Positions 4,035 to 62,870 of a DNA stretch of 64,000 bases are shown here, piece after piece. The position numbers and the translations under genes are program-made. Every line of letters begins with the position of its first letter. Position 1 is the stretch's first letter. The stretch lies in contig NZ_JAQNDL010000001.1 of assembly GCF_028368995.1 (NCBI RefSeq), positions 1,536,001 to 1,600,000 on the forward strand, written 5' to 3'. This DNA comes from Nannocystis bainbridge. Lineage in GTDB: Bacteria > Myxococcota_A > Polyangia > Nannocystales > Nannocystaceae. Below the pieces are notes generated by a model that had not been told where the DNA came from, did not search any database, and worked only from the letters and a program-made list of their open reading frames with translations.

Positions 4035-4106
4035 GACATGTCGCAAAGGACATGTCCGACGCACCGGCGTCGCGCGCTTCTGAGAACATGTCTCGAAGGA
4101 CATGTC
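4035..4106. repeat. Two TGTC-N6-GACA palindrome units
   Basis: gacatgtc-gcaaag-gacatgtc (4035-4056) and aacatgtc-tcgaag-gacatgtc (4085-4106), between convergent genes. Confidence 0.9.
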
Positions 4107-4154
4107 TGACGAGTCGCGGGGTCGCTGACAAGAACCGGCGGCCCGGCGCCGCGC

Positions 4155-4643
4155 TCACGACGAGAACATGTAGAGCCGACGCGCGATCGCCCGCGGGCAC
4201 CGGCCGATCGGGTCGCCGACCTTTGCCCGGTTGCTGAACTCCTCGTCGGCCGCGGGGGTGGGCTTCGGCTGCGCCGGCGACTTCTCGCCGTCCCCGGTGT
4301 CCTGCGCCGCGGCCTCCTCGCAGAGCCGATCCATCACCTCGGTGGCGGACTTGGGGTTCGCCTTGGCGAGCAGCTCGGCGGCCCACGTGAGCTTCGGGTC
4401 GACGTCGAACTGCTCGCCGAGCACGGCGGCCAGCGCGAGGAAGCGGCTGACGTCTTTCTCGGAGGTGATGTGATGCGCGGCCGCCCGCTCGATGCCCGCC
4501 TTGACCTTGCCGAGGAGCTCCGCGCCGCTCATCCCCGCGACGGAGGGGAGCTGCTCGCCGAGGCGCTTCACCATCTGCGCCTCGAAGTCACGAGCGCCGG
4601 CCTCCGCGAGCTGGGTCATCTGTTGCTTGACGAACTTGAGCAT
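4155..4643 (-). CDS. Small helical T6SS-effector-associated (co-chaperone-like) protein
   Basis: ATG at 4643 (MLKFVKQQ). The motif A..HHITSEKDVSRFLAL..GEQFD..TWAAELL resembles 22573..22932. Ends with KVGDPIGRCP. Confidence 0.65.
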   Translation of the reverse strand: MLKFVKQQMTQLAEAGARDFEAQMVKRLGEQLPSVAGMSGAELLGKVKAGIERAAAHHITSEKDVSRFLALAAVLGEQFDVDPKLTWAAELLAKANPKSATEVMDRLCEEAAAQDTGDGEKSPAQPKPTPAADEEFSNRAKVGDPIGRCPRAIARRLYMFSS

Positions 4644-5039
4644 GGCGGCCGAACTACAGCTTCCATTTTTATCACTTCCGCTGCGCCCGCGCGACCGGGG
4701 CGGCGCACGCCGGACGCACGAGAGTTCGCCCTGGCTCGCCCCGCGGGCGCGCGATGCGTCCCAGGCGCAGCCCGTGCCGTGCAGGCTCATGTGCCTGTGC
4801 GTGCTGGCGCTCGCTTCGAGGACCGAGAGCGACGAGACGCGGCTGGCGCAGGCCGAGGTCTTCCGCTCTCGTGTCATCGTCGGGGCGTGAGCGCACTCGA
4901 GCGTCGGGCGTCTGTCCGCCGGGCCGAGCCAGGCCCGCGCGGACGCAGCGGCCGCCTTGCGCCGCCCTGGGCCCGTCGATATCCTCGCTCATGAGAACGC
5001 GCGTCGGAGCGACGCGACCGATCGGCGGCGGGTGGCGGG

Positions 5040-6407
5040 ATGGCGACCAAAGAGTTCCCTGATTATTGCGAGTTGACATTCCGGACCGAGGGCGGCCACC
5101 TGCCGAGCGTCCTCAAGGCGCACTGGCCGGGAGGCGTGTCAGGTGTGACCATCGGCCCCGGATACGACATGGGCCAGCGCAGCGCCGCGTCGATCCGCAC
5201 CGACCTCGCCAACGCGGGTGTGCCCCAGACCAGCATCGACAAGTTCGTGGGTGGCGCCGGCCTGACCAGCACCTCCGCTCGCGACTGGGTGAACACGAAC
5301 GCCGACTCGATCCCCCTGCTGACCCGCGACCAGTCGATGGCCCTCTTCACCCACGTGTACCCGGTGTACGTCGGGTACACGAAGAGCATCATCCGGTCGT
5401 GGGGCGGCAACTGGGACGCTTACCCGCAAAAGATGAAAGAGGTGCTGGTCGACCTGCGATTCCGCGGCGACCTCTCCGAACGGCACAAGCCCCGCCTGTT
5501 GCCGTCGATCACGGCCGCCGACTACCCCGCATTCCGGGCGGTGATCCACGACCACAAGTACTGGGTGGACAACACCAACCTCCGGAACGCGCGGGACGGC
5601 AGCATCAATCAGCGCATCACCGCGCGCAGCGCCTGGTTGCCGGCGGAGCCGGGGACCCAGGCCGCGGCCTGGGTGTTCCCGTTCCCGGACAACGCAGGCA
5701 AGGACGTCCAGGACGGCGGCTATTACATCGGCTCGCCGTCGCTGAGCGCAGCGGCCCTGCCGAAGGCGGACGACGGCTTTTACCCGATCGGCGCGAGCGG
5801 CATCTGGCACGGCGGGATCCACTTCGACGCCGGGACCGGGACTCAGCTCAAGCAGGTCGACGGCGTCCGCTGCATCAAGGACGGCGAGGTCGTCGCATAC
5901 CTCGTCAATCAGAAGTACAAGGAGATCGCGTTCCCGGCGGAGGACAAGAAGGCGCTGTATTCGTCCGGGTTCACGTTGATCCGGCACAAGCTCGAGTGCC
6001 CGGGGGCGCCGCCCGCCCAGCCGGCCGCGCCTGCCACGACGACCCCCGCGCAGACTCCTGCGTCCGGCACGCCCACCAACCCCGCGCCCGCAACGCCAGC
6101 CCCCGCCACGCAGGCGCCCGCCAAGACCCCTCCGCCCGCTCAAAACGCGACGCCCGCCAAGCCGCCTCCGCCCGCCCAGCCGGCCGCGCCCGCCAAGCCG
6201 ACCCTGACCTTTTACAGCCTCTACATGCATCAACTCGACTACGAGGGCTATCAAAGCGACGCCCAGCGCAAGCGCCCCAAATATTGGGGGCCGGCGAAAG
6301 AATACGTGGTCGGAGAGAAGGCCAAGGATCAGCAGGAAGACGGGCCGGAGCCGGCCGAGCCGGAGCTGCTCGGGGAGTGCGACGAGATGGCCTGCTGGTC
6401 GGAGTAG
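5040..6407 (+). CDS. Pesticin/phage-lysozyme-like muramidase fused to an N-terminal WHIX-type segment
   Basis: TFRTEGG..HWPGGVSGVTIGPGYDMG (pesticin C-domain-like), then FYPIGASGIWHGGIHFD, VRCIKDGEVVAY, SSGFTLIRH, FYSLYMH, PKYW. Confidence 0.8.
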   Translation: MATKEFPDYCELTFRTEGGHLPSVLKAHWPGGVSGVTIGPGYDMGQRSAASIRTDLANAGVPQTSIDKFVGGAGLTSTSARDWVNTNADSIPLLTRDQSMALFTHVYPVYVGYTKSIIRSWGGNWDAYPQKMKEVLVDLRFRGDLSERHKPRLLPSITAADYPAFRAVIHDHKYWVDNTNLRNARDGSINQRITARSAWLPAEPGTQAAAWVFPFPDNAGKDVQDGGYYIGSPSLSAAALPKADDGFYPIGASGIWHGGIHFDAGTGTQLKQVDGVRCIKDGEVVAYLVNQKYKEIAFPAEDKKALYSSGFTLIRHKLECPGAPPAQPAAPATTTPAQTPASGTPTNPAPATPAPATQAPAKTPPPAQNATPAKPPPPAQPAAPAKPTLTFYSLYMHQLDYEGYQSDAQRKRPKYWGPAKEYVVGEKAKDQQEDGPEPAEPELLGECDEMACWSE

Positions 6408-6614
6408 CGGCGATACGAGCGTCGCTCTCCGGCCGAGGGTCCGAGGCCCTCCCCGAAGCACCGCCTCCCGCATGACGGAGCCGAGGCCGCCGACCCGGCC
6501 GAGCGAAATCTCGGCCGATCTCGCATGAATCTTCGCCCTGTCGCCCGCCCGTGCCGGGGCGCATCCTCGGGTCATCGACGTTCCGCCTCGCGCGGACGCT
6601 CTGGAGGACACCTC

Positions 6615-7927: not shown

Positions 7928-9412
7928 ATGCTCATATCCCGACTTTTCGCCGGTCTGCTCGCCCTCGCCTCGCCTGCGGCCCCCCGGGCCGGGACGGTCT
8001 CGCTCGAACCCGCGTCGGTGACCTCCGCCGCGGGGGAGAAGATCCAGTTCGAGCTCGGCACCCTGCACGTGCTCGAGAATCGCGCTGCCGCGGACAGCCG
8101 CGTGATCGACGTCGGGTTCGCGCGGCTGCGAGCGGCGCGACCGACCCGCGCGGCGCCGATCGTGTTCTTGCCCGGCGGGCCGGGCAACAGCTACCTCGAC
8201 GCCTTCACCGACAGCGGCGAGAACTCGCGCCGCCGGCTCGAGAACTTCCGCCGCTACAGCGCCGTCGCCGACGTCATCGTGCTCGATCAGCGCGGGTTCT
8301 CGCGCCGCGGCACCACCCTGCGCCTGCCCGATGCCGTGCCCGCGCCGCTCGATCGCCCGAGCTCCATGGAGGCCGAGAGCGCGACCTATCGCGCCTTTGC
8401 GGCCGCGGCGATCGCCGCCAACCCGGATCACGATCTGTCCGGCTATCACGTGCGCGAGTGCGTCGAGGACGTCGCCGAGCTGCGCCGCGCGCTCGGCTAC
8501 GCCAAGCTCAACCTGCTCGGCGGCAGCTTCGGCTCGCAGTGGAGCTTCGCGGTCCTGCGGCTGCACCCGGAGATCGTCGAGCGCGCCGTGCTTTACGGCG
8601 TCGAGCCGCTCGACGACGGCGTCGACATGCCATCCTATTTGTTCGCCGCCTTGCAGCGCATCGCCTTCGATGGCGACCGCGCGCCGAACTTGCGGCCGTA
8701 TCTGCCGCCCGGCGGATTGATGGCCGCGGTCCGCGAGCTCCGCGACCGGTTCGCCCGTGGTCCGGTCACCGTGAAGGTCCGCGTGCCCGAGACCGGCAAG
8801 ACCGAAGCGGTGGTGCTCGGCCTCGCCGACCTGCAAAATGCGCTGCTGCCCGACGACGCCGAAACGTGGCCGGCGTTCATCCTGTCGCTGTATCACGGCC
8901 GCTACGAGGAGTGGGCGCGGGAGGAGCTGGCGCGCCGCCGCAGGTCGAAGTTCTCCTCGGTGATCTTGCCGCTGATCGATTCGGGGCTGGGCTTCAGCGC
9001 GACCCGAGCGCACCGGCTGCACAGCGATCCAGCGACCCACTACCTCGGCACGTGGAGCTTCGAGCCTCACGAGAGCTCGCGCCCGGCCTGGCCGACCCCC
9101 GATTTCGGCGACGCGCTGCGCGCCCCGGCGACGAGCGAGGTGCCGGTGCTGTTCGTCAACGGCGACTGGGACACCTCGACGCCGATCGAGAACATGCTGC
9201 AGATCGCGCCCTACTTCCCGCGCGGCCGCGTGATGATCGTGCACCGCGCCGTGCACGAGCAGCTGACCCGGATGACCCGCCACCAGCCCGAAGTCTTCGC
9301 TGCGATCCTCGAGTTCTATCGCTCGGGCGCGACCGCGAAGCTGCCGGCCGAGATTTCGCTGCCGACCCCGAACTTCGTGACGCCGTCCTTTCCTCCGCCC
9401 GCTCGCCGCTGA
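7928..9412 (+). CDS. Secreted alpha/beta hydrolase (TAP/tripeptidyl-peptidase-like)
   Basis: Signal peptide; FLPGGPG, DQRG, nucleophile elbow GGSFG, NGDWDTSTP, catalytic His near the C-terminus. Confidence 0.88.
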   Translation: MLISRLFAGLLALASPAAPRAGTVSLEPASVTSAAGEKIQFELGTLHVLENRAAADSRVIDVGFARLRAARPTRAAPIVFLPGGPGNSYLDAFTDSGENSRRRLENFRRYSAVADVIVLDQRGFSRRGTTLRLPDAVPAPLDRPSSMEAESATYRAFAAAAIAANPDHDLSGYHVRECVEDVAELRRALGYAKLNLLGGSFGSQWSFAVLRLHPEIVERAVLYGVEPLDDGVDMPSYLFAALQRIAFDGDRAPNLRPYLPPGGLMAAVRELRDRFARGPVTVKVRVPETGKTEAVVLGLADLQNALLPDDAETWPAFILSLYHGRYEEWAREELARRRRSKFSSVILPLIDSGLGFSATRAHRLHSDPATHYLGTWSFEPHESSRPAWPTPDFGDALRAPATSEVPVLFVNGDWDTSTPIENMLQIAPYFPRGRVMIVHRAVHEQLTRMTRHQPEVFAAILEFYRSGATAKLPAEISLPTPNFVTPSFPPPARR

Positions 9413-13438: not shown

Positions 13439-13460
13439 GACATGTCCCTTCGGACATGTC
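13439..13460. repeat. TGTC-N6-GACA palindrome unit
   Basis: gacatgtc-ccttcg-gacatgtc. Confidence 0.9.
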
Positions 13461-26478: not shown

Positions 26479-29319
26479 GTGCCCGATCCCTTCTCGCCGC
26501 GTGTGGGCGACCGTGTCCGCGATCGCTATGAGCTGATGACTCCGTTGCGCGCCGGCGGCCCGGCGCAGGTGTTCATGGCCGTCGATCACCAGGCCGGACG
26601 CGAGGTCGAGCTCACCTTGTTCGATCCCGCGTGCGCCGGCGCCGACGCGTGGGCCGGCTTCGCCCGGGTCATCATCGCCGCCACCGCGGCCAAGATCCCG
26701 GGCCTCGTGCTGCCGCGCGGCGTCACCCGCACAGCGCCGACCCCGCCCTCGTGCCTCGCCGACCCGCAGATGGCGCGCGGCCTCGATCGCCGCGCCGAGC
26801 AGGGCCCCACGCCGTGGCGGCGCGCCCTGCAGCTGTGCGAGCGCGTGGCGGAGATCGTCGAGCGCGCGCACGCGGCCACCGGCGCGGCCCACCGCGCGCT
26901 GACCTCGGCGCGCTGCGTCGTCACGGCGCGCGAGGAGGTCAAGGTCCTCGATTTCGGGATCGCCGAGCTCGCGCCGGGCCACGCCGACGATTCACCGTAC
27001 CGCGCGCCCGAGCAGCAACAGGCCGCCGGCGGCCCGCCCAGCGACGTCTATGCAATCGGCGTGATGCTCCACGAATTGCTCACCGGCCAGCGCGCGCCCG
27101 CGGGTCCGCTGCCGCCGTGGAGCCCGCCCGCCGACGCGCCCCCCGAGCTCGCGGAGCTGCTGACGCGCGCCACCGCCATCGCTCCCGAGCACCGCCACCC
27201 CGATCCGGCCGCGCTGCGGACCGCCATGCGCGCGGTGCTCGACGCCGACGCCAAGGCCGCCGCCGCCAGGGCCGTCGCCGAGGCCGAGGCCGCCGAGGCC
27301 AGGGCCGTCGCCGAGGCCAAGGCCGCCGAGGCCAGGGCCGCCGAGGCCAAAGCTGCCGAGGAGAGGGCCGCGGCTGCGCCGGTGCGCGAGGCGACCGTCG
27401 AGCTGCCGCTGCCCGGAGGCAGCAACCTGTCCGCAAAGCCATCCGATCTGCCGCGCCTCGCGGGCGGCGCCGACCTGTCCGCCCGGCCCGCCGATCCGCC
27501 GCTGCTCGCGAGCGGCGCCGACCTGCCCGCGCGGCCATCCGCCGCCCCGGCCGAGCCGCTGCTGGGCGGGACCAACCTGTCCGCGAGGACACCCCCGGCC
27601 CCGCCGCCGCCGCCCCCGCTGCGAGATGTCAGTCTGTCCGAACGGACAGTCGAACTCCCGCTCCCGCCCGACTCCTCGCCGGCCCGCGCCGACCTGTCCT
27701 CCGGGACATCCGCAGCGCCTCCCGAGCCGCGGCCCTCGCAGTCGAGCGCGTCACTCGCCTCCTCGTCCGGCTCGCGCCTCGCCGGCGACCCATCGGCCTC
27801 CGCCTCGTCCTCGTCGCTGTCCGGCTCACGCTCGCGCGGATCAACCTCGCCGTCGCGCGCCCACCCGACGATCGCCCCGGATGATTCGTCATCTTCGTCG
27901 CTGTCCGGCTCGCGCTCGCGCGGATCGACCTCGCCGTCGCGCGCGCACCCGACGATCGCCCCGGATGATTCATCGTCCTCACGCTCGCGGGCTTCGATCG
28001 CGCCAGACGACGCGTCATCCGCGTCGCAGAGCCTCCGGGCCTCGCGCTCTCACTCGACGATCGCCCCGAGTGATTCGGCGTCCGCGTCGCAGAGTCAGCG
28101 AGCCTCGCGCTCTCACTCCACCCTCGCCCCGGCGGATGCATCCTCGTCGCAGAGCCTCCGGGTCTCGCGCTCACACCCGACGATCGCCCCGGGTGATTCC
28201 TCCTCCTCGCTCGGCCGCGCGTCCGTCCCTGGCTCCGCCTCGCCGTCGCGCTCGCACCCCACGCTCTCCTCCGCGTCCTCCTCGTCGCTCCAGCGCCCGC
28301 GCGGCTCGGCCTCGCCGTCCCGCTCGCACCCGACGCTCGCCGCCGAGTCCTCCGCCTCGTCCCTCCAGCGCCCCCGCGGCTCGGCCTCGCCGTCGCGCTC
28401 GCACCCCACGCTGTCCGCCGAATCCTCCGCCTCCACGCGTCCGCGCCCGCCCGGCGCCCCGCCCACGCGGGCCTACCCGACCCTCGCGTCCGCGCAGGCC
28501 CAGGCCGCCGCGTCCTCGTCCTCGCTGTCGCGGCCGCGACCCCCGGGCGCCCCCCCGTCGCGCTCCTACCCGACCCTCGCCCCGTCCGCCTCGCCGCCGC
28601 CGGTCCCCGCGGACCGCACCGAGGTGCTCGCCCACAGCGCCATCGTCGCGGCCGAGCGCGCCCGCACCGGCGCCCACCCGCCGGTGCCCGCCGCCGACAA
28701 GACCGAGGTCACCCCGCGACGCTCCGTGCGCGGCCTGCCCGACGGCTCGCGCGGCGCCGCGGCCTCGGGCGCGGCGTGGCGACGCGACGCCGTCGCCCAA
28801 TCCTCGGTCCTCGCGCCCGGCGATTCGACCGTCATCGCCCCGGCGCCCGATGCAGCCTCGACCGAGGAAATGCCGGTACCCGCATTCGCCCGCGCGCCGC
28901 GAGGCCACGTCGATCCGCCGACCACGTCCTTGCCGGTACCCCCATTCTCGACGCAGGGCCGCCACGTCGATCCGCCGACCGATCAGATCGCGGTGCCCGC
29001 CTTCGCCGACGCGACGCAGATGCTGCACGCCGACGATCTGCTGCTGCCGCCGGCCCCGGTGAGCGATCCGGACGCCACACGGATCTGGCGCCGACCGCCG
29101 GACCCGAGCGAGGTCGAGCCGGCCGCCCGCGCGCCCGAGTCGACGATGATGCTGCCCACCACCGGGGAGACCGTCGTGCACCGGCCAGAACCTGTCCCTC
29201 GGGCCAGGTCATTGCTGGCCGAGTTCGCCAGCTGGTCCCTGCGCAAGAAGCTGCTCGCCGTCAACGTCGCGTTCGCGCTGCTCATCTTGATCGGCGCGCT
29301 GGCAGCGGTCGCCTGCTGA
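26479..29319 (+). CDS. Membrane-anchored Ser/Thr pseudokinase with a long repeat-rich linker
   Basis: Kinase fold (DFG, YRAPEQ, SDVYAIG), but VAIK is replaced by VELT and HRDLKPxN by HRALTSAR; single C-terminal TM. Confidence 0.85.
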   Translation: MPDPFSPRVGDRVRDRYELMTPLRAGGPAQVFMAVDHQAGREVELTLFDPACAGADAWAGFARVIIAATAAKIPGLVLPRGVTRTAPTPPSCLADPQMARGLDRRAEQGPTPWRRALQLCERVAEIVERAHAATGAAHRALTSARCVVTAREEVKVLDFGIAELAPGHADDSPYRAPEQQQAAGGPPSDVYAIGVMLHELLTGQRAPAGPLPPWSPPADAPPELAELLTRATAIAPEHRHPDPAALRTAMRAVLDADAKAAAARAVAEAEAAEARAVAEAKAAEARAAEAKAAEERAAAAPVREATVELPLPGGSNLSAKPSDLPRLAGGADLSARPADPPLLASGADLPARPSAAPAEPLLGGTNLSARTPPAPPPPPPLRDVSLSERTVELPLPPDSSPARADLSSGTSAAPPEPRPSQSSASLASSSGSRLAGDPSASASSSSLSGSRSRGSTSPSRAHPTIAPDDSSSSSLSGSRSRGSTSPSRAHPTIAPDDSSSSRSRASIAPDDASSASQSLRASRSHSTIAPSDSASASQSQRASRSHSTLAPADASSSQSLRVSRSHPTIAPGDSSSSLGRASVPGSASPSRSHPTLSSASSSSLQRPRGSASPSRSHPTLAAESSASSLQRPRGSASPSRSHPTLSAESSASTRPRPPGAPPTRAYPTLASAQAQAAASSSSLSRPRPPGAPPSRSYPTLAPSASPPPVPADRTEVLAHSAIVAAERARTGAHPPVPAADKTEVTPRRSVRGLPDGSRGAAASGAAWRRDAVAQSSVLAPGDSTVIAPAPDAASTEEMPVPAFARAPRGHVDPPTTSLPVPPFSTQGRHVDPPTDQIAVPAFADATQMLHADDLLLPPAPVSDPDATRIWRRPPDPSEVEPAARAPESTMMLPTTGETVVHRPEPVPRARSLLAEFASWSLRKKLLAVNVAFALLILIGALAAVAC
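27790..28590 (+). repeat. Degenerate coding tandem repeats (SR[SA]H[PS]T[IL]-containing units, about 10)
   Basis: Recurrent tcgcgctcgcacccgacg-like units, including a near-exact duplication of SSSSLSGSRSRGSTSPSRAHPTIAPDD. Boundaries approximate. Confidence 0.8.
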
Positions 29320-32087: not shown

Positions 32088-32158
32088 CACCTGTCGGGCG
32101 CGACAGGTAGCATGCACCTCGGGACATGCACCTTCAAACATGTTCCAAAGGACATCCT
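32088..32158. repeat. TGTC-N6-GACA array
   Basis: cacctgtc-gggcgc-gacaggta, then CATG/CATC cores at 32111, 32125, 32139, 32153 (14-bp period), abutting the SDR stop codon. Confidence 0.85.
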
Positions 32159-32982: not shown

Positions 32983-33018
32983 CACATGCCCCGAAGGACA
33001 TGCCCCTTCCGACATGTC
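32983..33018. repeat. TGTC-N6-GACA-type array (3 cores)
   Basis: cacatgcc-ccgaag-gacatgcc-ccttcc-gacatgtc. Confidence 0.85.
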
Positions 33019-33031
33019 CTCGCCGCCAGGC

Positions 33032-35326: not shown

Positions 35327-36433
35327 ATGCGCTCTCGACCTCCTGCTCAGGCGCTGCTGTGGCTCATGGCGCTGACGTCGTGCTTGACCACCGCGCGCGC
35401 CGACAGCATGCCCGAGGAGGAGCTCTACGGCTTCGAGCTCACCGCCGTCACCGAGCTGTCCGGGCTGTCGCGCTTCCCCGAGCATGTCTTTTACGTGTAT
35501 CCCGCCGCCTGCACCGAGACGATGGCGAGGTTCACGGGATGGCTGGAGACGGGCGACGAGAACCCGGCGCTCGAATATCAGTACTCGTACTCCAGCCGGA
35601 AGGACGACCTGCCCCATTACTTCGTGGTCGGCGACGGCGAGGTGCCGGAGTGGATCGGCGACGGCGCTCCTTGCATCCCCTCGGTCCTCTACGCGCTCGC
35701 CCGCGACGTCGCCGCCACCGTCGATCTCGCGCCCATGACGCTCGCGCAGCTCCACAAGTTCTTCACCGAGGACCCACGACTGTTTCGCAGCAGCTTCGAG
35801 TTCCAGCGCTCCCCGCTGTACGCCAACAACGGCTCACCGCTGCGCGCCGTCCGCGAGCTCGTGCGGGTCCTTCACATCGGTCCTGACGAGATCGTCGCGG
35901 TCCTCGACAGCACCACCTATCGCTTCGAGGACGGCACCGAGCAGACGCTGAAGCTGGCCCACACCAAGCGCCCGCCGTCGCTCCCGTTCAAGCCGCTCAA
36001 GCCCGACAAGCTCACCAAATACGCCGACAAGTACGCCAAGTGGGAGGCCCGCCAACCCCTCGAGCCCCCGCCGGCGCCGCGGCTCCCCGTGATCGACGGC
36101 GCCGATACCGGCTGCAGCGAGGGCACCATCGGGACCGAGCCTGCGCCCGCGCTGCCCGTCGAAGCGCCCGCGCTGCCCGTCGAAGCGCCCGCACCCGACC
36201 CTGTCGCTGCCCCGCCGATCGCCGCCGCGCCCGCCCCGGTCGCCGCGCCATCGGTGATTCCGCCGCCGCCCGAGCCCGAGCCCGCGGAGCCGCTCGAGGA
36301 TGTCTCCGAGGACATGGTCGAAGAGACAGCGCCCGCCACCGATCCGCTGTGGCCGATGGGCGCCGCGATCGCCGGCGGCCTGGCGCTGGTCGCCGTGATC
36401 GCCCTGGCCCGGCGGCCGCGCGCCACGACCTGA
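35327..36433 (+). CDS. Hypothetical exported protein with Pro-rich linker and C-terminal TM anchor
   Basis: Signal-like N-terminus (TTARA-D), GC3-biased frame, terminal hydrophobic helix + RRPR. Confidence 0.7.
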   Translation: MRSRPPAQALLWLMALTSCLTTARADSMPEEELYGFELTAVTELSGLSRFPEHVFYVYPAACTETMARFTGWLETGDENPALEYQYSYSSRKDDLPHYFVVGDGEVPEWIGDGAPCIPSVLYALARDVAATVDLAPMTLAQLHKFFTEDPRLFRSSFEFQRSPLYANNGSPLRAVRELVRVLHIGPDEIVAVLDSTTYRFEDGTEQTLKLAHTKRPPSLPFKPLKPDKLTKYADKYAKWEARQPLEPPPAPRLPVIDGADTGCSEGTIGTEPAPALPVEAPALPVEAPAPDPVAAPPIAAAPAPVAAPSVIPPPPEPEPAEPLEDVSEDMVEETAPATDPLWPMGAAIAGGLALVAVIALARRPRATT

Positions 36434-36448
36434 CCGTCGGGACATGTC
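36431..36448. repeat. Degenerate TGTC-N6-GACA unit at the gene end
   Basis: tgac-cgtcgg-gacatgtc overlapping the stop codon. Confidence 0.6.
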
Positions 36449-37985: not shown

Positions 37986-38024
37986 GACATGGCCTCTCGG
38001 ACAGGATGTCCGAAAGGCCATGTC
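37986..38024. repeat. TGTC-N6-GACA-type array between convergent genes
   Basis: gacatggc-ctctcg-gaca and ggatgtc-cgaaag-gccatgtc. Confidence 0.75.
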
Positions 38025-42410: not shown

Positions 42411-42446
42411 GACATGTCCCTGAGTACAGGACCCAAAGGACAGCCG
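42411..42446. repeat. TGTC-N6-GACA-type array (3 cores)
   Basis: gacatgtc-cctgag-tacaggac-ccaaag-gacagccg. Confidence 0.7.
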
Positions 42447-43707: not shown

Positions 43708-44010
43708 TGTCTCCAGGGACACCTCGCGCATCGGCCCACGACGGGGAACACCCCACAGCTGCGACCCAGACACCCGGCGGCCCCGCTTGTGTCTCCAGGG
43801 ACAGGCCCGATGTCGCGTCCTGGCCCCGATCTGCGACCTCGGGGCCGAAACAATCGGCCTGTCTCGCAGGACATGTCGCAACAGACAGCTGGTTCCGCCG
43901 CCGCCCGGCTCTCGACCTGCCTCGAAGGACATCATGACATGTCCCGAAGACCATGTAACGAGGCAGCCCGCGACCCGCACGCGATCACCGCCTGTCCCGA
44001 AGGCCATGTC
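43708..44010. repeat. Dense cluster of about 7 TGTC-N6-GACA-type units
   Basis: Exact units start at 43708, 43790, 43860, 43874; near-matches at 43918, 43940, 43993. Confidence 0.88.
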
Positions 44011-53512: not shown

Positions 53513-53647
53513 CCGGACGACCCTCGCCGCATCGGCGACCGGCGTGGCGAGCTGCACGCCCCGCCGCGTCGGGGTGGTCGAGAAGGCCGACGGCCTGTTC
53601 GCGCTCGCGCGCCTCGGCGACGGCGCGGGCCAGCAGGTCCACGAGAG

Positions 53648-53711
53648 GACATGTCCTGGAGGGCATGCTCTTTCGGTCATGCCCTTTAGGACATGCCCCC
53701 GAGGACATGCC
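53648..53711. repeat. TGTC-N6-GACA-type array (5 cores)
   Basis: CATG at 53650, 53664, 53678, 53692, 53706 (exact 14-bp period), ending at the ligase stop codon. Confidence 0.92.
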
Positions 53712-55268
<1,557 letters not shown>

Positions 55269-56511: not shown

Positions 56512-56683
56512 AGGCCGCGAGGGCGAGCATCGGCGCTCGCGCGACGACCTCCGCGGCGATCACCCGCGCGACGGAGTGCGCGGGCGAACTCGAGCCATCG
56601 CCGATCTCGCCGCGCTATCGGGACGGGCGACGCCCGGATCCTGGACAGCACATCGCCTCCCGAGGTACGGCTGGCGCTCCGTC

Positions 56684-57373
56684 ATGACCGGCCTCCTCAT
56701 CAGCCCGGGCGCCGTCAGCGTGCATTTCTCGGGCGCCTCGGACCACGATCTCGAGCGCGGCTTCGCCGGGCTGAAGGCGCTGGCGCGGCGGCTGCATCTG
56801 CGGCGCCTCGTCTGCTGGGATACCGACGGCCGCACCGACACCACCGAGTGCCACCAGGGCTCCGCGCTGTTCGACGGCCCGCTCGAGCTCGAATTTCCCC
56901 GCCTCGTCGGCGTCTCCGCCGACTACGCGCTGCCCGACAGCGACGCTCTCGCCCGCCTGCTCGTCACCCGCGCCGACGCGGGCCTGGCCGTCAGCGGCGG
57001 GTTCCCGCCGTTCGAGGCCGACCTGGAGTTCGCCGATCCGCAGCGGACGCGCGGCCATGCCTGCCTCGAATTCGTGCTCGCCGCCGCCGACGCGCTCGAC
57101 GCCCGGATCGCCGTGTTCGTCAGCGGCACCGGCGACGCCATGCCCTCGGCGACCGAGTCCGACGCGCGGGTCCGCCTCGTCGCCCTGCCGGCGGCGCAGA
57201 TCGACGAGGCCACGCGCGAGCGCCTGCGCAGCGCCGGTGCCATCGTCGACGCACCTGACGAGCGCGCCGTCGCCGTGTGGCTGCTCGGCGAGCGCTCGTT
57301 CGCCCCGGGCCGGGCCCCGACCGAGGAATTGCTGCGACATGTCGAGCGGCTGCTCCGCGGCCCTGCGCGCTGA
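56684..57373 (+). CDS. Hypothetical protein
   Basis: GC3-biased open frame filling the gap; no family recognised. Confidence 0.55.
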   Translation: MTGLLISPGAVSVHFSGASDHDLERGFAGLKALARRLHLRRLVCWDTDGRTDTTECHQGSALFDGPLELEFPRLVGVSADYALPDSDALARLLVTRADAGLAVSGGFPPFEADLEFADPQRTRGHACLEFVLAAADALDARIAVFVSGTGDAMPSATESDARVRLVALPAAQIDEATRERLRSAGAIVDAPDERAVAVWLLGERSFAPGRAPTEELLRHVERLLRGPAR

Positions 57374-57764
57374 TCCCCGCCAATCACCACAGTCCGTCAC
57401 TACGGTCGCTCGCCAGGCGACCGGCGGTCGCCACGAACACTCACCGTCACGCGATCATCCTCCGATCGCGCGCCATCGACCCGAACTCCTCGCGCCGGAT
57501 CGCCTCGCTACGCCTCCGGTCACGCAGCGCCCTCACTACGCAGCTCGAGCGCGCCGTCGCAAAAGCGCGCACAAAGGCTCGCCGGACCGAGAAATTCGCG
57601 TGGGCCGGCGTGCTCAGCAGGACGGCCCACGCTCGCGGCACCGCCATTCTCGCGGCGCGATGCCGGATCGCCGCTACCTCGACGCCACGCGTGCAGGCAG
57701 CCCTCATGGGGCCCTCCGAGGCTCGCCGATCGCGGGGCTCGGCGGCCCGGTGATACGGTTCGCC

Positions 57765-58412
57765 ATGCTCCGCCGATCGTCGCTCTTGCTGGTCCTCACC
57801 GCCGCGGCCTGCTTCTCCGACAATGGGCTGTCGACCAACAGCGGCGTCAGCGTGAGCACTGCCGGCACGACCGCGACCGGCACCGACGCGACAGGCACCG
57901 ACGCGACCTCGAGCTCGACCTCGGACGCGCCGGTGACGACCTCGGCGGCGACGACGACCACCACCACCTCCGCCACCACTGCGCCGGCGACCACCGACGA
58001 GCTGACCTCGGACGCGCTGACCACCGGCGCCACGACTTCGAGCACGAGCGAGCCCGGCACCACCACCGGACCGGACACCGGCGAGGCCACCACCGACGCC
58101 GGCCCCTACGCCGCCTGCGCCGCCGCGGCGACCAACTACGAGTGCTTCGCCTGCTGTCAGGTCAACCACGGCGACTGGGAGGTGTTCCGCGGGACCGTCG
58201 CCGGGTGCGTCTGCGAGGACATCAATCACCAGTGCTACCCCGGCTGCGCCGGCCCGCTGTGCAACAGCGACGAGCTCGAGCAGTCGTGCTTCGGCTGCTT
58301 CCCCGCCGACGACGCCTGCATCGCGGCGGGGCTCACCGAGTGCGTGACGATCGCCGAGTGCGCCGCCTTCGCCAGCTGCCTCGAGGGCGCGGCCTGCAGC
58401 GCCAAGGGTTGA
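57765..58412 (+). CDS. Thr-rich/Cys-rich lipoprotein
   Basis: Lipobox TAAAC; Thr linker; C-terminal domain with about 16 Cys. Confidence 0.8.
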   Translation: MLRRSSLLLVLTAAACFSDNGLSTNSGVSVSTAGTTATGTDATGTDATSSSTSDAPVTTSAATTTTTTSATTAPATTDELTSDALTTGATTSSTSEPGTTTGPDTGEATTDAGPYAACAAAATNYECFACCQVNHGDWEVFRGTVAGCVCEDINHQCYPGCAGPLCNSDELEQSCFGCFPADDACIAAGLTECVTIAECAAFASCLEGAACSAKG

Positions 58413-58529
58413 GCGGAGTCGCCGCGCCCGCGCTCACCGATCCCCTCGTCGCTGCCGGTTCAGGACCCTCCCCGGCGCGCCGTCGCCTTGCATCGCTCCC
58501 GGCCGCCGGCGGGAGTATCCTCGACCTCC

Positions 58530-59678
58530 ATGGCCGAGTTCACCGCGGGTCAGCGCATCGTCGGCCTCAAGTCCGGGTACCTCGTCGGCGAGCGGCTCGG
58601 CGAGGGCGGCTTCGGGCTCGCCTTCGTGGCGACCGCCGACGACGGGCGGCGGGTCGTGCTCAAGCAGCTTCGGCTCGCGCGCATGGGCGACTGGAAGGCC
58701 ATGGAGCTGTTCGAGCGCGAGGCGCGGGTGCTCGCCGCGCTCGCCCACCCCAACATCCCGCGCTGCCACGAGTTCTTCGCCACCGACGGCGCCCGCGCCG
58801 TCGACCCGGGCGAGCTGTCCGGCCTCACCGGCGACGCCTCGCTCGTGCTCGTGCAGGACCACGTCGACGGCGCCTCGCTGGCCGCGTGGGTCGCCGCCAG
58901 CACCCGCACCACCGCCGCCCAGGCCGAGGCCTTGCTGCGCAAGCTGCTCGGCGTCCTCGACTACCTGCACGGCCTTCATCCGCCGGTGGTGCACCGCGAC
59001 ATCAAGCCCGGCAACATCGTCGTCACCGCCGCCGGCGAGCCGATGCTGATCGATTTCGGCGCGATCCAGGACCGGGCCCGGCGCGACTCCGAGGTCGGCT
59101 CGACCAGCGTCGGCACCTTTGGGTTCTTCCCCATCGAGCAGGTCCTCGGCAAGGCCCGGCCGGCCTCCGATCTCTACGCCCTGGCGATGACCATGGTCGT
59201 CGTCCTCAGCCATCGCCAGCCCGACGAGCTGCCGCTCGACCCGTCGACCAGCAAGGTCGACGTGCGCGAGGCCTGCCCCGGCCTGCCCGAGCGACTGACG
59301 CGGGCGCTCGACGGCATGCTCGAGCCGGCCGTCGGCCAGCGCCTCGCCAGCGCGCGCGACGTGCTGGCGGTGCTCGACGGCGAGGTGCTGCAGCCGCAGG
59401 CCGCGGACATACCTGTCCCCAAGGCCAGGTCGCTGCCGGCGATCGTCTCGCGGGTCCCGCTGTACACCGGCGGCGCCGCGGCGCTGCTGCTCTACGGCTT
59501 CTTCTTCGACGCGTTCTCGGAGTCCGAGCTGGTCTCGCTCAGCTTCCTGTGGCTGATCCCGCTCGCGTTCGGCCTCGGCGCTCGCCTCAACGACTCGATC
59601 GGCGGCGGCCTGCGCTGGGCCGTCGGCGCCACCCTGCTGCTCGGGGCGTTCCTGCTGCTCGTGTTCCCGGCGCTGTGA
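58530..59678 (+). CDS. Ser/Thr protein kinase with C-terminal TM helices
   Basis: LGEGGFG, VVLK, HRDIKPGN, DFG, SDLY all intact. Confidence 0.93.
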   Translation: MAEFTAGQRIVGLKSGYLVGERLGEGGFGLAFVATADDGRRVVLKQLRLARMGDWKAMELFEREARVLAALAHPNIPRCHEFFATDGARAVDPGELSGLTGDASLVLVQDHVDGASLAAWVAASTRTTAAQAEALLRKLLGVLDYLHGLHPPVVHRDIKPGNIVVTAAGEPMLIDFGAIQDRARRDSEVGSTSVGTFGFFPIEQVLGKARPASDLYALAMTMVVVLSHRQPDELPLDPSTSKVDVREACPGLPERLTRALDGMLEPAVGQRLASARDVLAVLDGEVLQPQAADIPVPKARSLPAIVSRVPLYTGGAAALLLYGFFFDAFSESELVSLSFLWLIPLAFGLGARLNDSIGGGLRWAVGATLLLGAFLLLVFPAL

Positions 59679-59854
59679 CGCCGCGGCCGGTGCGTGCGAC
59701 CAGCTCGATCCGCCGCCGCGCCGAGTCACCGGCGAAGTGCGAGGGCGCTCGCTGCCACGTCCGCGCGGCGTGCGTGCGTGCGTGCAGACGGATCTCGCAA
59801 CCACGCGCGCCGCGCCCCGCGAGGTTGCGGATATCATGGCCGCCGGAGACCGGC

Positions 59855-60655
59855 GTGCATCCTGCGACCATCGACATCGGCGTCAACCTCACCCACCGCT
59901 CGTTCGCCTCCGACCTGCCGGCGGTGCTCAGCCGCGCTCGTGAGGCCGGGGTCGCCCACATGGTCGTCACGGGCACGAGCCTGGCCGGCAGCAGCCGCGC
60001 CGTGGAGCTGGCGGTGGCGCACCCGGGGCTGCTGTCGGCCACGGCGGGCGTGCATCCGCACGACGCCAGCCACTGGGAGGCCGATGCACCCGCGCGGCTG
60101 GCAAAGCTCGCGGAGCGGCCGCAGGTGCTGGCGATCGGCGAGTGCGGCCTCGATTTCGACCGCGACTTCTCGCCGCGTCCCGTGCAAGAGCGGTGCTTCG
60201 CGGCGCAGCTCGAGATCGCAGCCGCGACCGGCCTGCCGGTGTTCCTGCACGAGCGCTCGGCGCACGCGCGCTTCGCGGAGATCCTCGCCGAGCACCGCTC
60301 GCGGCTGTGCGACGCGGTGGTGCACTGCTTCACGGGTACCAAAGCCGAGCTGCACCGCTACCTCGACATGGACTGCCACATCGGCATCACCGGGTGGATC
60401 TGCGACGAGCGCCGCGGCCTGCACCTGCGCGAGCTCGTGCGATCGATCCCCGCTGGCCGCCTCATGATCGAGACCGACGCGCCGTTCCTCGCCCCGCGCG
60501 ACCTCAAGCCCACCCCCAAGCGCAACGAGCCGGCCTTGCTGGCGCACGTGGCCGTCGCTGTGGCCAGGGCCCGCGGCGAGACTGTCGAGGCGCTGGCGGC
60601 CAGCAGCACCGCCACGGCGTGCGCGTTCTTCGGGCTGAAGCTCGCGGCGGGCTAG
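59855..60655 (+). CDS. tatD: TatD family hydrolase/DNase
   Basis: IDIGVNLT, TAGVHPH, IGECGLDFDR, FLHER, VHCFTG, MIETDAPFL, RNEP. Confidence 0.95.
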   Translation: MHPATIDIGVNLTHRSFASDLPAVLSRAREAGVAHMVVTGTSLAGSSRAVELAVAHPGLLSATAGVHPHDASHWEADAPARLAKLAERPQVLAIGECGLDFDRDFSPRPVQERCFAAQLEIAAATGLPVFLHERSAHARFAEILAEHRSRLCDAVVHCFTGTKAELHRYLDMDCHIGITGWICDERRGLHLRELVRSIPAGRLMIETDAPFLAPRDLKPTPKRNEPALLAHVAVAVARARGETVEALAASSTATACAFFGLKLAAG

Positions 60656-60947
60656 GAGCCTGTCCGAGATGCGCGTCCGAAGACGCGGGGCCTGGAGAGC
60701 TGGGTGATGGCGGGCACGGAGCGGCAGAGTGGGGCCCCGCGTCTTCGGCCGCGCGATTTCCTGGACAGGCTCCTCGCGCTCAGCGCGGCAGGATCTTGCC
60801 CCCATTCACGCCGAAGGTGACGCACTCGGCGGTGAGGACCGCGTCGTCGCGGCGCCAGGCCACCCCGGGCGGCAGGCCCGCCCTGGGCCCGCGGCGCTCG
60901 CGGCCGCGCGGCGGCTGTCAACGGCGAGCCGCCCTCCCACGCCGATA

Positions 60948-60983
60948 AACATGTCCCGATGGACATGTACCTCGGGACATTCA
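60948..60983. repeat. TGTC-N6-GACA array (3 cores)
   Basis: aacatgtc-ccgatg-gacatgta-cctcgg-gacattca, just past the stop at 60990. Confidence 0.88.
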
Positions 60984-60989
60984 TCAATT

Positions 60990-61454
60990 TCAGCAGCCGG
61001 CGTCGGTCACGAACAGCACCGCGACCACGCCGTCGATCTCGACCAGATCGACGGCCTCGCAGCCGGCCGCGGGCTTCCCCGTGGCGATGCCCAGCGACGC
61101 CGCCGCGACGTCGTTGGCCAGGCGGAAGCGGCCGCTGGTCAGCGCCGCGAAGCCGATCCCCTGGGCCGAGGCGAACGCGTCGAGCCACACCTGCAGCGGC
61201 CGGCGCACGCCCTCCGGCGTGGCGATCTCGATGCGCCCGAAATCGAGGGCTCCGCGCCGACCATCGAACTCGAACACCACCGGGTATTCGCCGTCGAGCG
61301 CGACCAGCACCGACTCGCCGCGGTCCAGCGCCCGCAGGTCGCCGGCGGTGATGCTCGTGAACACGGGGGTCGCCGTGGCCACACCGCCGGCCGACAAGAC
61401 GTCTTCGCACCCCGTCACGAGCCACAATGATGCCACCAGCGTCCGTACCCACAT
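60990..61454 (-). CDS. Hypothetical lipoprotein
   Basis: MWVRTLVASLWLVTGC lipobox. Confidence 0.65.
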   Translation of the reverse strand: MWVRTLVASLWLVTGCEDVLSAGGVATATPVFTSITAGDLRALDRGESVLVALDGEYPVVFEFDGRRGALDFGRIEIATPEGVRRPLQVWLDAFASAQGIGFAALTSGRFRLANDVAAASLGIATGKPAAGCEAVDLVEIDGVVAVLFVTDAGC

Positions 61455-61582
61455 CCTAATTGCCCCCTCGCGCCAATGCTCGGCGCGCGTCGACCCTCGC
61501 GTCTTGCGGCGGCAGGCCCAGCGCGCCGCCGCCTTCTCCATCGGACGCGAGGTCGGGGCGGAGCCCGGCCTCGCGTGAATGT

Positions 61583-62518
61583 TCAGCTCTCGTCGACCAC
61601 CGTGTCTTGCGGCAGCAGATACAGCTCGACGTTGCCCTTGCCGTCGGGCCGCACCAGGTCGGGGCGGATCCCGGCCTCGCGCAATTGGGCCCGCAGCCGC
61701 CGCAGGTTGCGGTCCCAGTTCTGGCGCATGATCCCGCGGTCGGTCTCGTCGCCCCAGATCTCGCGCGCCACCGCCTCCCACGAGACGAGGCGGTTGATGG
61801 TCGCCAGCTCGCTGACGATGCGCGCCAGCAGGCCCGCGATCACGCACTCGGGCCGGCCCGGCATGCGCACGTAGACCGTGTCGTAGCGGGCCACGATCGT
61901 CAGCGGTGGGTCGTTCTGGCCGATGCTGCGGGTGCTGAGCGCCCCGTCGCCGAGCGGGCGGGCCTGGACGGCGAAGTGGTGCCCGCGCAGCTCCCACGAC
62001 GCACCGGCCGCCAGCTCGACCGGCTCGCGGTCGCCGACGCGCAGGGTGAAGCCGTCGGAAGTGCCCCAGATATACGCCTCGGCCCCCGGCAGGTACTCCG
62101 GGTGCAGCTTGTAGCTCGGCGTCTGCGACGGCCCGCTGCTCGCTGTCACGATCGAATAGACCGACTCGCTGAGGGTGCACTGCTCCTGGCCGTCGCCGTA
62201 GAGCACCATCACCCGGTCCGGCAGCTCGACCGCCTCGACGTCGAGCGTCACGTTCTGCGACAGCCGGATCCGCTGGCCCGGCGCGAGGATGATCGAAGAC
62301 TTGCGCTCGCCGTCGAGGATGATCCAGCGCCGCAGCGACAGGATCTGCAGGTGACGCCCGCGCATGCTGATGAACGCGTGCGCCTCCGACACCTCGGGGC
62401 TCTCGATCCGCAGCTCGGCCGTCGAGGCGCGGCCGATGAGCCCACCGGCTGCGACCTGGGCGGTGCGCCCGTCAGGGAGGCGAAAACGGACGAACGGGGT
62501 GTAGCGACCTTGCAACAC
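61583..62518 (-). CDS. FHA-domain protein with a C-terminal winged-helix-like region (putative regulator)
   Basis: LIGR..ELRI..PEVSEAHA (FHA GR..S..H); VSWEAVAREIWG..WDRNLRRLRAQLREAG. Confidence 0.75.
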   Translation of the reverse strand: MLQGRYTPFVRFRLPDGRTAQVAAGGLIGRASTAELRIESPEVSEAHAFISMRGRHLQILSLRRWIILDGERKSSIILAPGQRIRLSQNVTLDVEAVELPDRVMVLYGDGQEQCTLSESVYSIVTASSGPSQTPSYKLHPEYLPGAEAYIWGTSDGFTLRVGDREPVELAAGASWELRGHHFAVQARPLGDGALSTRSIGQNDPPLTIVARYDTVYVRMPGRPECVIAGLLARIVSELATINRLVSWEAVAREIWGDETDRGIMRQNWDRNLRRLRAQLREAGIRPDLVRPDGKGNVELYLLPQDTVVDES

Positions 62519-62593
62519 GGCGGGCCTCCTTCGAGCGGGGAACGACGATTGTACCAGTGAACCTGCGCGCGCAGCGGACCTGCGCCGGACTCG

Positions 62594-62809
62594 TCACAGC
62601 GACGGCGGGATGTTGATGCCCGACGGCGGCCGCGCGCGGAACTTGGCGCAAGCGCCGCAATCGCCGCCCTTGCCTTCGAGCGAGTCCGCGTCCTCCTTGA
62701 GCGTGGCCGGCCCTCCGTGGGTCGCAGCGGCGCGTTGAACCAGATCGTCGCAGCCGGACACGGCGGTGAGGGCGAGGGCGGCGAGGGCGAGAGTGACGGT
62801 GCGGGACAT
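62594..62809 (-). CDS. Small lipoprotein
   Basis: GGAGG RBS; MSRTVTLALAALALTAVSGC; CGAC motif. Confidence 0.6.
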   Translation of the reverse strand: MSRTVTLALAALALTAVSGCDDLVQRAAATHGGPATLKEDADSLEGKGGDCGACAKFRARPPSGINIPPSL

Positions 62810-62820
62810 GAGGACCTCCA

Positions 62821-62870
62821 GACAAGTTGTTTGAGACATGTGCTTAGGGACAGGAATCTTCGGACATGGA
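62821..62870. repeat. TGTC-N6-GACA-type array (4 cores)
   Basis: GACA at 62821, 62835, 62849, 62863 (14-bp period), just past the stop at 62877. Confidence 0.82.

Follow-up and report, generated by a model that had tools for sequence, protein, structure and literature searches.

The 64,000-nucleotide stretch of Nannocystis bainbridge analyzed here (positions 1,536,001 to 1,600,000 of the forward strand of contig NZ_JAQNDL010000001.1, assembly GCF_028368995.1; hereafter the window) carries dispersed arrays of a 14-bp palindrome, TGTC-N6-GACA, that belong to a family spread over the whole genome. In this family the 5-bp half-sites GGACA and TGTCC alternate in orientation, separated by gaps of either 0 bp (the CA/TG junction) or 4 bp, and CATG hence recurs every 14 bp, a register to which we refer as the lattice. 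We tentatively favor, at somewhat less than even confidence, the reading that these sites make up a recognition lattice maintained by selection for a putative sequence-specific protein, and that its arrays would act as two-way barriers behind genes.

The arrays were first noticed in a sequence-only reading of the window, and that observation is confirmed. Each of the 14 motif starts which it had listed is an exact TGTC-N6-GACA, and two further copies were found at 22062 and 63542. The 16 copies compare with 0.57 expected (standard deviation 0.76), and none of 100 dinucleotide-preserving shuffles reached this number. The core GACATGTC is present in 12 copies and CATG-N10-CATG in 14, against 0.84 and 0.58 expected, respectively. 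The five cores with a strict 14-bp period reported at 53648-53711 are plain in the sequence and were also retrieved independently by Tandem Repeats Finder (53646-53711, period 14, 4.7 copies, 75% matches). The stop codons near which arrays had been placed (4022, 32157, 33032, 36433, 37976, 42475, 53712, 60990, and 62877) are all gene ends in our gene calls, at distances of 0-40 bp from the arrays. The genes flanking the arrays are functionally unrelated, as had been proposed, and their Pfam content is mixed: a short-chain dehydrogenase/reductase (SDR), a zinc-dependent alcohol dehydrogenase, a di-haem peroxidase, a PAS-STAS protein, an acyl-CoA synthetase, and five more without a Pfam match.

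Across the assembly (11.05 Mb, five contigs, 71.5% GC), the spacing of the half-sites is strictly fixed. When TGTC-Nk-GACA was counted for spacers of 0 to 24 bp, a comparison suggested in the sequence-only reading, we obtained 3663 copies at N6 and 29-175 at all other lengths, the only other exception being N20, one period on, with 984. The longer form TGTCC-N4-GGACA has 1987 exact copies (0-16 for N1-N8 spacers) and 6245 copies when one mismatch is tolerated (101-330 for other spacers). Likewise, the palindrome GGACATGTCC occurs 956 times compared to 0-139 for nine control palindromes, GACA-N0-TGTC occurs 2237 times compared to 52-193 at most other gaps, and CATG-N10-CATG occurs 3736 times compared to 72 for N9 and 262 for N11. 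The distance spectrum of CATG is a comb with teeth at 14, 28, 42, 56, and 70 bp, and exact 14-bp chains of CATG reach 12 members. When all inverted pairs of 5-mers separated by 0-12 bp were counted, the lattice family exceeded by far every other palindrome of the genome. Seeds extended in steps of 14 bp yielded 5317 loci with 10352 units, among them 3110 singles, 1016 doubles, and 467 triples; the largest arrays counted in this way hold 11 units.

The consensus, with a slash at each junction, reads (GGA)CA/TGTCC-NNNN-GGACA/TG(TCC). Within the unit, G2 and C13 are nearly invariant (~97-99%), followed by T1/A14 and C4/G11 (both ~90%) and C5/G10 (~72-76%), while the middle pair T3/A12 is the least conserved (~68%). 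The C....G bias of the 6-bp spacer noticed in the window holds for the genome, with C at position 5 in 75% and G at position 10 in 72% of the 3663 copies. The four central bases are free save for a Y...R tendency, and the commonest 6-bp spacer accounts for 107 of the 3663 copies. The suggestion that one strand would read as a C-UUCG-G hairpin did not hold, since sense-strand loops are TTCG in 96 and CGAA in 92 of 1881 cases, which is no strand preference. Perfect long palindromes are a minority among the 1987 exact units (8-bp arms in 142, 9-bp arms in 63). Chains of half-sites start and end on either half about equally (470 four-half chains run L..R and 463 R..L) and odd numbers of half-sites are common. 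This indicates that the building block is the 5-bp half-site GGACA/TGTCC rather than a bounded element. Sub-variants of the unit were also found, with the junction CAGG (CTGTC-N6-GACAG) in 651 copies and with GCATGC in 407. The sub-family with this non-palindromic junction, CAGG/CCTG (also counted as ACCTG-N10-CAGGT, 282 copies), forms whole arrays of its own, for example at positions 1054308 and 1479249 of the third contig (C3).

Within arrays, neighboring loops resemble each other no more than random pairs of loops do (identity of 0.30 versus 0.28), and only 144 of 5035 neighboring pairs have identical loops, so most arrays are not products of recent slippage. A few are recent tandem amplifications, such as the 8 near-identical units at C3:1085844. 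The scarcity of identical loops led us to reject a model of target-site duplication (a 10-bp core with a 4-bp duplication), which predicts identical neighboring loops. Loops of partner units are reverse complementary only at lag 2 (126 of 2828 pairs, 4.5% versus 1.6% by chance) and all other lags are at chance level; apart from this weak excess there is no loop complementarity, and a model in which the arrays are long palindromes was rejected as well.

Placement was analyzed against 8209 genes called from third-position GC, which cover 83% of the genome and have exact stops and approximate starts; the pattern of divergence by codon position from a congeneric genome (G005) shows that these frames are right overall. 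Called genes contain 2560 (41%) of the 6245 units that have no more than one mismatch, and the other 3685 are intergenic. Unit density is highest in spacers between convergent genes (4.80 per kb; 738 of 1482 such spacers hold a unit), intermediate in tandem spacers (1.70-1.99), low in divergent spacers (0.57), and lowest within genes (~0.28). Mapping relative to gene ends, which the sequence-only reading had also called for, revealed a sharp peak 10-30 bp downstream of stop codons and no peak relative to starts. In the 1070 tandem spacers of 250-600 bp, units crowd toward the upstream stop, with decile counts falling from 187 to 22. Offsets from the stop peak at -3, +2, +11, and +16, since in many cases the TGA stop itself forms part of the first unit (TGAcc or TGACA/TG). 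No preference for a type of stop codon at units was detected. Start codons fall on the ATG of a junction in only 62 of 8209 genes. Among gene ends with enough room, 1966 of 6020 have a unit within 120 nt, whereas hairpin-plus-T-run (T4) terminators were detected at 277 of the 6020. The latter are present at 97 of the 1966 ends with a unit and 180 of the 4054 without (4.9% versus 4.4%, p=0.39), thus showing no anti-correlation, although such terminators are too rare in this genome for the comparison to have power. Among 102 tRNA genes, a unit lies within 80 nt downstream of only 6 and upstream of none; the low downstream count speaks against a general terminator.

Density along all five contigs is even, with 10-108 units in every 100-kb bin and no macrodomain, in line with the earlier proposal of a chromosome-wide family. 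The poorest region, at 1,100,000-1,300,000 of the first contig, consists of two 100-kb bins with GC fractions of 0.686-0.692 and only 10 units each, compared to a mean of 56. These bins have near-zero GC skew and a low coding score, and are probably acquired DNA that lacks the lattice.

The copies inside genes are real and not compositional noise. The interiors of the better-scoring half of genes contain 246 exact units versus 0-3 for other spacers. The inner motif GTCC-N4-GGAC is flanked in genes by the rare T and A in 245 of 423 cases, compared to 0-2 of 122-145 in controls with spacers of the same codon phase. Genic units are spread all along genes and prefer two of the three reading frames, and the consensus itself can be read without stops in every frame. 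Single units dominate coding loci (1621 of 2287); as the insertion of 14 bp would shift the frame, these must have arisen by point changes.

Conservation was measured in an alignment of the present genome (G000) to G005, which spans 887,295 positions of a single species pair, related and hence not independent, and in which the intergenic positions that align are a conserved subset. Identity at third codon positions has a background of 0.86 for G or C and 0.33-0.35 for A or T, and expected identities for coding units were derived from codon position and base. In 235 aligned coding units, the third positions that fall in stems are 0.930 identical versus 0.710 expected (z 16.9, n=888), while stem sites at codon positions 1 and 2 are as identical as expected. 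The flanks of coding units are less conserved than average, which places the units in fast-evolving protein segments. Exact coding units are still units in G005 in 62 of 71 cases, compared to 36.2 expected. In 148 aligned intergenic units, identity is 0.84 in stems and 0.91-0.95 at the TG/CA ends. Identity in the intergenic loops (0.574) is below that of the flanks (0.707); either loops mutate faster, or shifts of register within arrays blur the alignment.

Positions are kept as well as bases. The orthologous gene end in G005 carries a unit in 96 of 148 cases when there is one in the present genome and in 29 of 273 when there is none (odds ratio 15.5, p 5e-31). The array at the gene end at 53712 is found in all six genomes compared, with differing unit numbers and loops, whereas presence varies at other orthologous ends: units occur only in the congener G001 at 56509 and 40394, and only in the congener G003 at 46177. 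Between two congeners at 93% identity, no clean insertion of a unit was found in 138 kb. A comparison of four sets of soil-metagenome contigs, which are short, to positions 42001-62000 of the window gave nothing usable at the arrays, where no indels were called. The conservation of bases and positions indicates that purifying selection, or a copying bias of the same effect, acts on the stems and most strongly on the CATG junction, in genes and intergenic regions alike, and points to arrays that are old and positionally stable.

Among the genomes searched, the lattice family is confined to the genus Nannocystis. We queried a pattern of 15 specified bases, TGTCC-N4-GGACATGTCC, with its reversed form as control. 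The present genome has 311 matches and the highest density, all 10 congeneric genomes have between 1 and 223, and 30 genomes from 30 other genera of the family and class have 0 or 1 each; the reversed control has none in any of the 41 genomes. A longer lattice pattern with 63 matches in the present genome has none in 300 other genomes of the phylum. In 1.48 Mb of G005, the N4 form occurs 216 times versus 0-2 for other spacers. One window protein is 90% identical to a protein of Nannocystis punicea. In samples of 41-100 kb from four other genera, no palindrome family prevailed, but the ranking is dominated by codon-periodic words and has low power: even in 80-280 kb samples of five congeners, the lattice family is missing from the eight top words. 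The viral contig IMGVR_UViG_3300005675_000065 (59 kb) has three units at 8231-8943, including a perfect 22-bp element, where 0.35 are expected; it may derive from a phage or prophage of a Nannocystis-like host.

Sequence recognition was weighed against RNA structure. Predicted folding of eight arrays gave z scores from -2.5 to -5.4 in seven and -0.3 in the eighth, with energies from -14.5 to -51.5 kcal/mol, and the longer arrays fold into one long hairpin with internal loops. For the hairpin partner, 686 compensated double changes were counted where ~625 are expected; for the core (junction) partner there is no excess. Tables for each base pair reveal no enrichment beyond independence, except for C..G at the middle pair (146 versus ~60). 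An Rfam search of the window gave no matches. The lack of clear covariation, the poor conservation of the middle pair, the fixed loop length, and the zero gap argue that the sequence itself is read; we conclude that the elements are probably recognized as sequence and not merely as a fold.

On these grounds, we propose the following mechanism. The candidate protein would form a symmetric dimer that binds TGnCC-N4-GGnCA in double-stranded DNA, and dimers would tile side by side across the CATG junction. Since a 14-bp period turns the helix by ~120 degrees, three units would complete four turns. Sites would accumulate where they are cheapest, that is, in the promoter-free DNA behind genes and most of all between convergent genes, and genic copies would be the same site fitted into tolerant codons. 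Arrays would serve as two-way barriers at transcript ends or at boundaries of supercoils or domains, as repetitive extragenic palindromic (REP) sequences and bacterial interspersed mosaic elements (BIMEs) are thought to do. Transcribed arrays are predicted to fold into strong hairpins, and an effect on mRNA 3' ends would be a likely second function or by-product. The family, its register, placement, genus range, and conservation were observed directly, while the protein, its binding mode, and the barrier role are our inference. Position-specific conservation without compensation, strict spacing, genic copies, and the few units at tRNA genes fit a DNA-protein site better than a REP-like hairpin. 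In this respect the sequence-only reading, which had offered both, was right to consider a cooperatively binding DNA protein, but its analogy to matS, NBS, and parS fails on copy number and even spread.

Several points weigh against such a recognition lattice. No binding protein was identified, and the only concrete lead to a reader, the PadR family, is undetectable in the lattice-bearing genomes G000 and G001. A copying bias (uptake plus recombination, or gene conversion) could mimic selection at synonymous sites. Isolated pairs of half-sites in intergenic DNA are of the hairpin type in 1967 cases and of the core type in 780. Sense-strand transitions that keep a G-U pair outnumber those that break the pair (213 versus 171, p=0.036; the individual pairs disagree), and hairpin-type compensation shows the slight excess given above (+10%). 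Finally, the peak behind stop codons and the stable predicted folds are what would be expected of an RNA 3'-end element.

A bolder form of the same idea is possible but doubtful: the lattice may belong to a private chromatin-like or termination system, in which a genus-specific protein would polymerize on GGACA quarter-sites along lattices with a CATG every 14 bp. If true, this would be a new class of genome-wide bacterial protein-DNA lattice with no known counterpart. It would mark a third of gene ends and thousands of genic sites, in a chromosome that has been reshaped for ~10,000 sites down to synonymous positions.

The first rival explanation, which we consider unlikely, dispenses with a dedicated protein: hairpins in 3' untranslated regions would terminate transcription from both sides or block 3'-5' exonucleases, and their sequence would be shared by slippage descent. 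REP elements and the U-less terminators of GC-rich bacteria act as such 3'-end hairpins. This explanation would account for the position 10-30 bp behind stops, for the richness of convergent spacers, where a palindromic stem gives an identical RNA stem on both strands, and for the strong folds of seven of the eight arrays. Canonical terminators at only 277 of 6020 ends imply that another 3' signal is needed, and the slight preference for wobble-compatible variants and the 10% excess of compensation would also follow. On the other hand, genuine covariation is lacking, and mismatches are frequent at the middle stem pair. Perfect 8-bp arms are present in only 142 of 1987 exact units, and loop length and the absent gap between hairpins are held more tightly than folding needs. 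Hairpins alone would not explain ~2,300 genic units with conservation at synonymous sites, the 6 of 102 tRNA genes with a downstream unit, or the equal frequency of canonical terminators with and without units, and the unrelated neighboring loops speak against recent slippage. The earlier suggestion of a REP-like hairpin at mRNA 3' ends thus stands as regards position and predicted folding, and falls short in the lack of a RAYT transposase, of GTAG/CGTC tags, and of covariation.

Quite unlikely, in our view, is a signal for DNA uptake or self-recognition spread by molecular drive, with the palindromes at gene ends tolerated or co-opted as terminators. In this reading, a preference of the competence machinery, or of another system that tells own from foreign DNA, would have carried the motif across the chromosome and into genes by biased uptake and recombination, as in Neisseria and Pasteurellaceae. 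The family is genus-specific, evenly spread, and in need of no transposase, and its positions are conserved between species, all of which suit such a signal. The genic copies in faster-evolving protein segments and preferred frames and the depletion in the two low-GC, acquired-looking bins do so too. The available part of a study of uptake sequences (PMC2346458) gives coding shares of 47-70% in genomes that are 84-89% coding, to which the 41% of units in a genome that is 83% coding may be compared, and reports that intergenic, hairpin-forming inverted repeats have been proposed as terminators. Nevertheless, known uptake signals are asymmetric 9-12-mers and not phased 5-bp half-sites, and drive alone would not lead us to expect arrays of 11-12 units or an 8-fold excess of convergent over divergent spacers. 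Furthermore, competence of Nannocystis is undocumented in the literature consulted.

The idea of a selfish, non-autonomous miniature element (similar to REPINs or to miniature inverted-repeat transposable elements, MITEs), mobilized by an unrecognized transposase or nuclease and finding safe havens behind genes, appears very unlikely. It would fit the high copy number within one genus, the more than ten-fold range of abundance among congeners, the varying presence at the orthologous ends 56509, 40394, and 46177, and the few recent amplifications such as C3:1085844; REPs of the CGTC type without a dedicated transposase are also on record in the available text of PMC3733652. Yet no Y1/RAYT transposase, for which the sequence-only reading had advised a search, was found in 11 genomes of the genus. 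Neighboring loops as different as those of random units and a top spacer of 107 in 3663 leave no trace of master copies, and arrays that begin and end on either half-site equally have no defined boundary. A 14-bp insertion would be a frameshift, yet singles dominate in genes (1621 of 2287 coding loci). Finally, the stems appear to be under purifying selection, and positions are kept at 96 of 148 orthologous ends.

An artefact of chance or of codon usage in a 72% GC genome is already refuted: codon-periodic palindromes are mildly enriched (for example, CGTCG-N4-CGACG with 1366 copies versus 189), but the lattice is 100- to 1000-fold enriched over other spacers, including those of the same codon phase, and neither the shuffles of the window nor the reversed controls in 41 genomes reproduce it.

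Few features of bacterial chromosomes are as poorly understood as short dispersed palindromes, and whether they are parasites or tools of the host is mostly undecidable. The lattice is an unusually clean case, with a tiny unit, an exact register, no transposase found, and conservation that can be measured base by base. As Nannocystis is mined for natural products, arrays at one gene end in three also matter for the annotation and engineering of its 11-13-Mb genomes, where any influence on expression and on the ends of transcripts would be of practical interest.

Within the window, the lattice features are as follows, in window coordinates.
4035..4106: a pair of double-core elements with units at 4039-4052 and 4089-4102, located 13-84 bp downstream of the stop at 4022, with the convergent gene ending at 4155; two predicted 8-bp hairpins, z -3.7.
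13439..13460: perfect 22-bp element GACATGTCC-N4-GGACATGTC in the intergenic region 13260-13537; predicted hairpin of -14.5 kcal/mol, z -3.3.
27578..27708: three single units inside the repetitive Ser/Pro-rich gene 26545-29319, translated as LSART, LSERT, and LSSGT.
32111..32154: three-unit array that finishes 2 bp before the stop (32157) of the minus-strand SDR gene.
32985..33028: three-unit array immediately behind the stop (33032) of a minus-strand gene; z -2.5.
36301..36328: two units within the 3' part of gene 35366-36433.
36431..36448: unit TGACC-N4-GGACA followed by TGTC, the first three bases being the TGA stop of gene 35366-36433.
37990..38020: two inverted units predicted to form one long hairpin, in the convergent spacer between the stops at 37976 and 38058; -51.5 kcal/mol, z -5.1.
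42411..42442: two-unit array behind the stop (42475) of the PAS-STAS gene; three congeners likewise have arrays at the orthologous end.
43708..44006: at least six scattered units (43708, 43790, 43860, 43874, 43936-43955, and 43993) in a divergent intergenic region.
53638..53711: five CATG cores strictly 14 bp apart, in an array that extends to the stop (53712) of the acyl-CoA synthetase gene; -44.8 kcal/mol, z -5.4.
54267..54280: single unit within the acyl-CoA synthetase gene, with one mismatch; 5 congeners have the identical unit.
59414..59427: coding unit TGTCC-N4-GGCCA; stems identical in 3 congeners, flanks 80-83% identical, loop variable.
60950..60979: array of two units, 11 bp downstream of the stop (60990) of a gene on the minus strand; z -3.1.
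62839..62852: single unit, located 25 bp downstream of the stop (62877) of a gene on the minus strand.
63542..63555: exact TGTC-N6-GACA inside gene 62877-65837.

The divergent, promoter-side region 43564-44100, with its six or more units, is an exception to the rule that units lie behind the 3' ends of genes. The reading frame 26545-29319 (925 residues, weak coding score) is rich in Ser, Pro, and Ala and has a hydrophobic tail at the C-terminus. It is densely filled with tandem repeats, with periods of 33, 48, 54, 63, 75, and 84 bp, and contains four lattice units. The peptide PVPRARSL near its end resembles PVPKARSL, which is encoded at the unit in gene 58530-59678. At 4023-4180 there are two copies of a ~55-bp segment that includes a degenerate unit and the final codons of the convergent gene, a local segmental duplication carrying units along; an N. 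punicea contig has three to four copies at 5190-5420, downstream of the gene for a 730-residue protein. The window's own 730-residue protein has no Pfam domain, and a 54%-identical homologue is encoded on contig JAHREJ010000029.1, the title of which, Bacillus subtilis, looks odd. A further tandem repeat of 96 bp (3.8 copies, 81% matches, also scored with a period of 195 bp) lies at 464-830 inside the first gene. In the congener G007, the orthologue of the gene that ends at 59678 has, directly after its stop codon, an 8-bp microsatellite, GACGCGAT repeated ~14 times, that is absent in the other genomes.

Several classes of known systems were compared with the lattice. CRISPR arrays, with repeats of 24-48 bp, spacers of similar length, and cas genes, do not agree with spacers of 4 bp at thousands of loci. 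A regulon operator was discarded because promoter spacers are the poorest intergenic class (0.57 units per kb in divergent spacers), and the flanking genes are unrelated. The sequence-only reading had dismissed both for the window, and the genome-wide data bear it out. Intrinsic terminators resemble the lattice in that a hairpin follows the stop codon at a distance of a few to tens of bases, but lattice arrays have no T-run (the next bases are T/G, G, T, and C, that is, the next half-site) and share one common stem sequence.

Sites for macrodomain organization and segregation (matS/MatP, NBS/Noc, SBS/SlmA, and parS/ParB) are 12-16-bp palindromes that are bound by dimeric proteins and scattered irrespective of gene function, with tens of copies restricted to one macrodomain. 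The lattice differs from them in its thousands of copies, its even distribution on five contigs, and its tiling, and the presence of at least 10 units in every 100-kb bin rules out regional confinement. PadR operators have an inverted ATGT/ACAT motif with a spacer of 8-10 nt according to the available part of PMC3506622, and ACATGTCC-N4-GGACATGT includes ATGT-N8-ACAT. However, PadR has few operators whereas the lattice has thousands of sites, and PadR was rejected as reader since PF03551 has no matches in G000 and in 6 of 10 congeners including G001, while 14 of 14 control genomes match. In addition, GGACATGTCC is a perfect p53 half-site (RRRCATGYYY), made of two inverted 5-bp quarter-sites. 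Literature containing this string comprised, among the matches listed, only p53 and unrelated eukaryotic work. No P53 or NDT80 domains were found in G000, a result of little weight because the control genomes are also without a match, and the identity is a coincidence as far as can be told.

The DNA uptake sequences (DUS) of Neisseria and the uptake signal sequences (USS) of Pasteurellaceae are closer. As far as the available sources describe them, they share with the lattice the character of short, over-represented, lineage-specific words at ~0.2-0.6 per kb, on both strands and both in genes and between them, as well as hairpin-forming inverted pairs behind genes, independence from a transposase, and a comparable coding share. 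The lattice is set apart by its palindromic unit, its 5-bp half-sites, its strict 14-bp register of up to 12 cores, and a much stronger 3'-end bias.

The REP, BIME, and REPIN elements of Enterobacteria, Pseudomonas, and Stenotrophomonas are also comparable in many respects. Like the lattice, they are short imperfect palindromes with hundreds to thousands of copies, are lineage-specific, persist vertically, and lie mostly behind genes. Their copies frequently form regular arrays and can fold as RNA. Several host proteins bind to BIMEs, as the available part of PMC2817692 states. Nevertheless, REP units measure 20-40 bp and alternate with linkers, whereas those of the lattice measure 14 bp, have 5-bp arms, and overlap head-to-tail at a shared CATG. 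Neither the GTAG nor the CGTC end tag appears in the position weight matrices of the lattice, and the doublets of REPINs (two inverted copies, spacer included) have no equivalent beyond the weak loop complementarity at lag 2. RAYT (Y1/HUH transposase, PF01797) is detected in 0 of 11 genomes of the genus, including G000, by a search that matches 6 of 14 control genomes. The lattice shares the copy number and 3' bias of extragenic REPs, but 2560 of its 6245 units are genic. With no transposase, tag, doublet structure, or covariation, membership in the REP/REPIN-RAYT group was rejected. The available text of Di Nocera et al. (2013; PMC3733652) describes REPs without a dedicated transposase, Thauera REPs with 5-bp stems, and intragenic REPs in which a whole element or a dimer is inserted in frame and encodes 20-30 residues, and its main text does not mention Myxococcota. 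Unlike the intragenic REPs described there, the genic units of the lattice are mostly single 14-bp sites, which cannot be insertions.

Literature on Nannocystis genomes and repeats, on REP and RAYT in Myxococcus, and on intergenic hairpins of myxobacteria contained no description of the lattice family, and neither this literature nor Rfam yielded the match to a known REP, MITE, or regulator site that would have overturned the original proposal. The lattice family thus matches no described family, and resembles dispersed palindromes in location and abundance. It differs from them in the size of the unit, the overlapping 14-bp register, the absence of any transposase among those searched for, and genic copies that are conserved.

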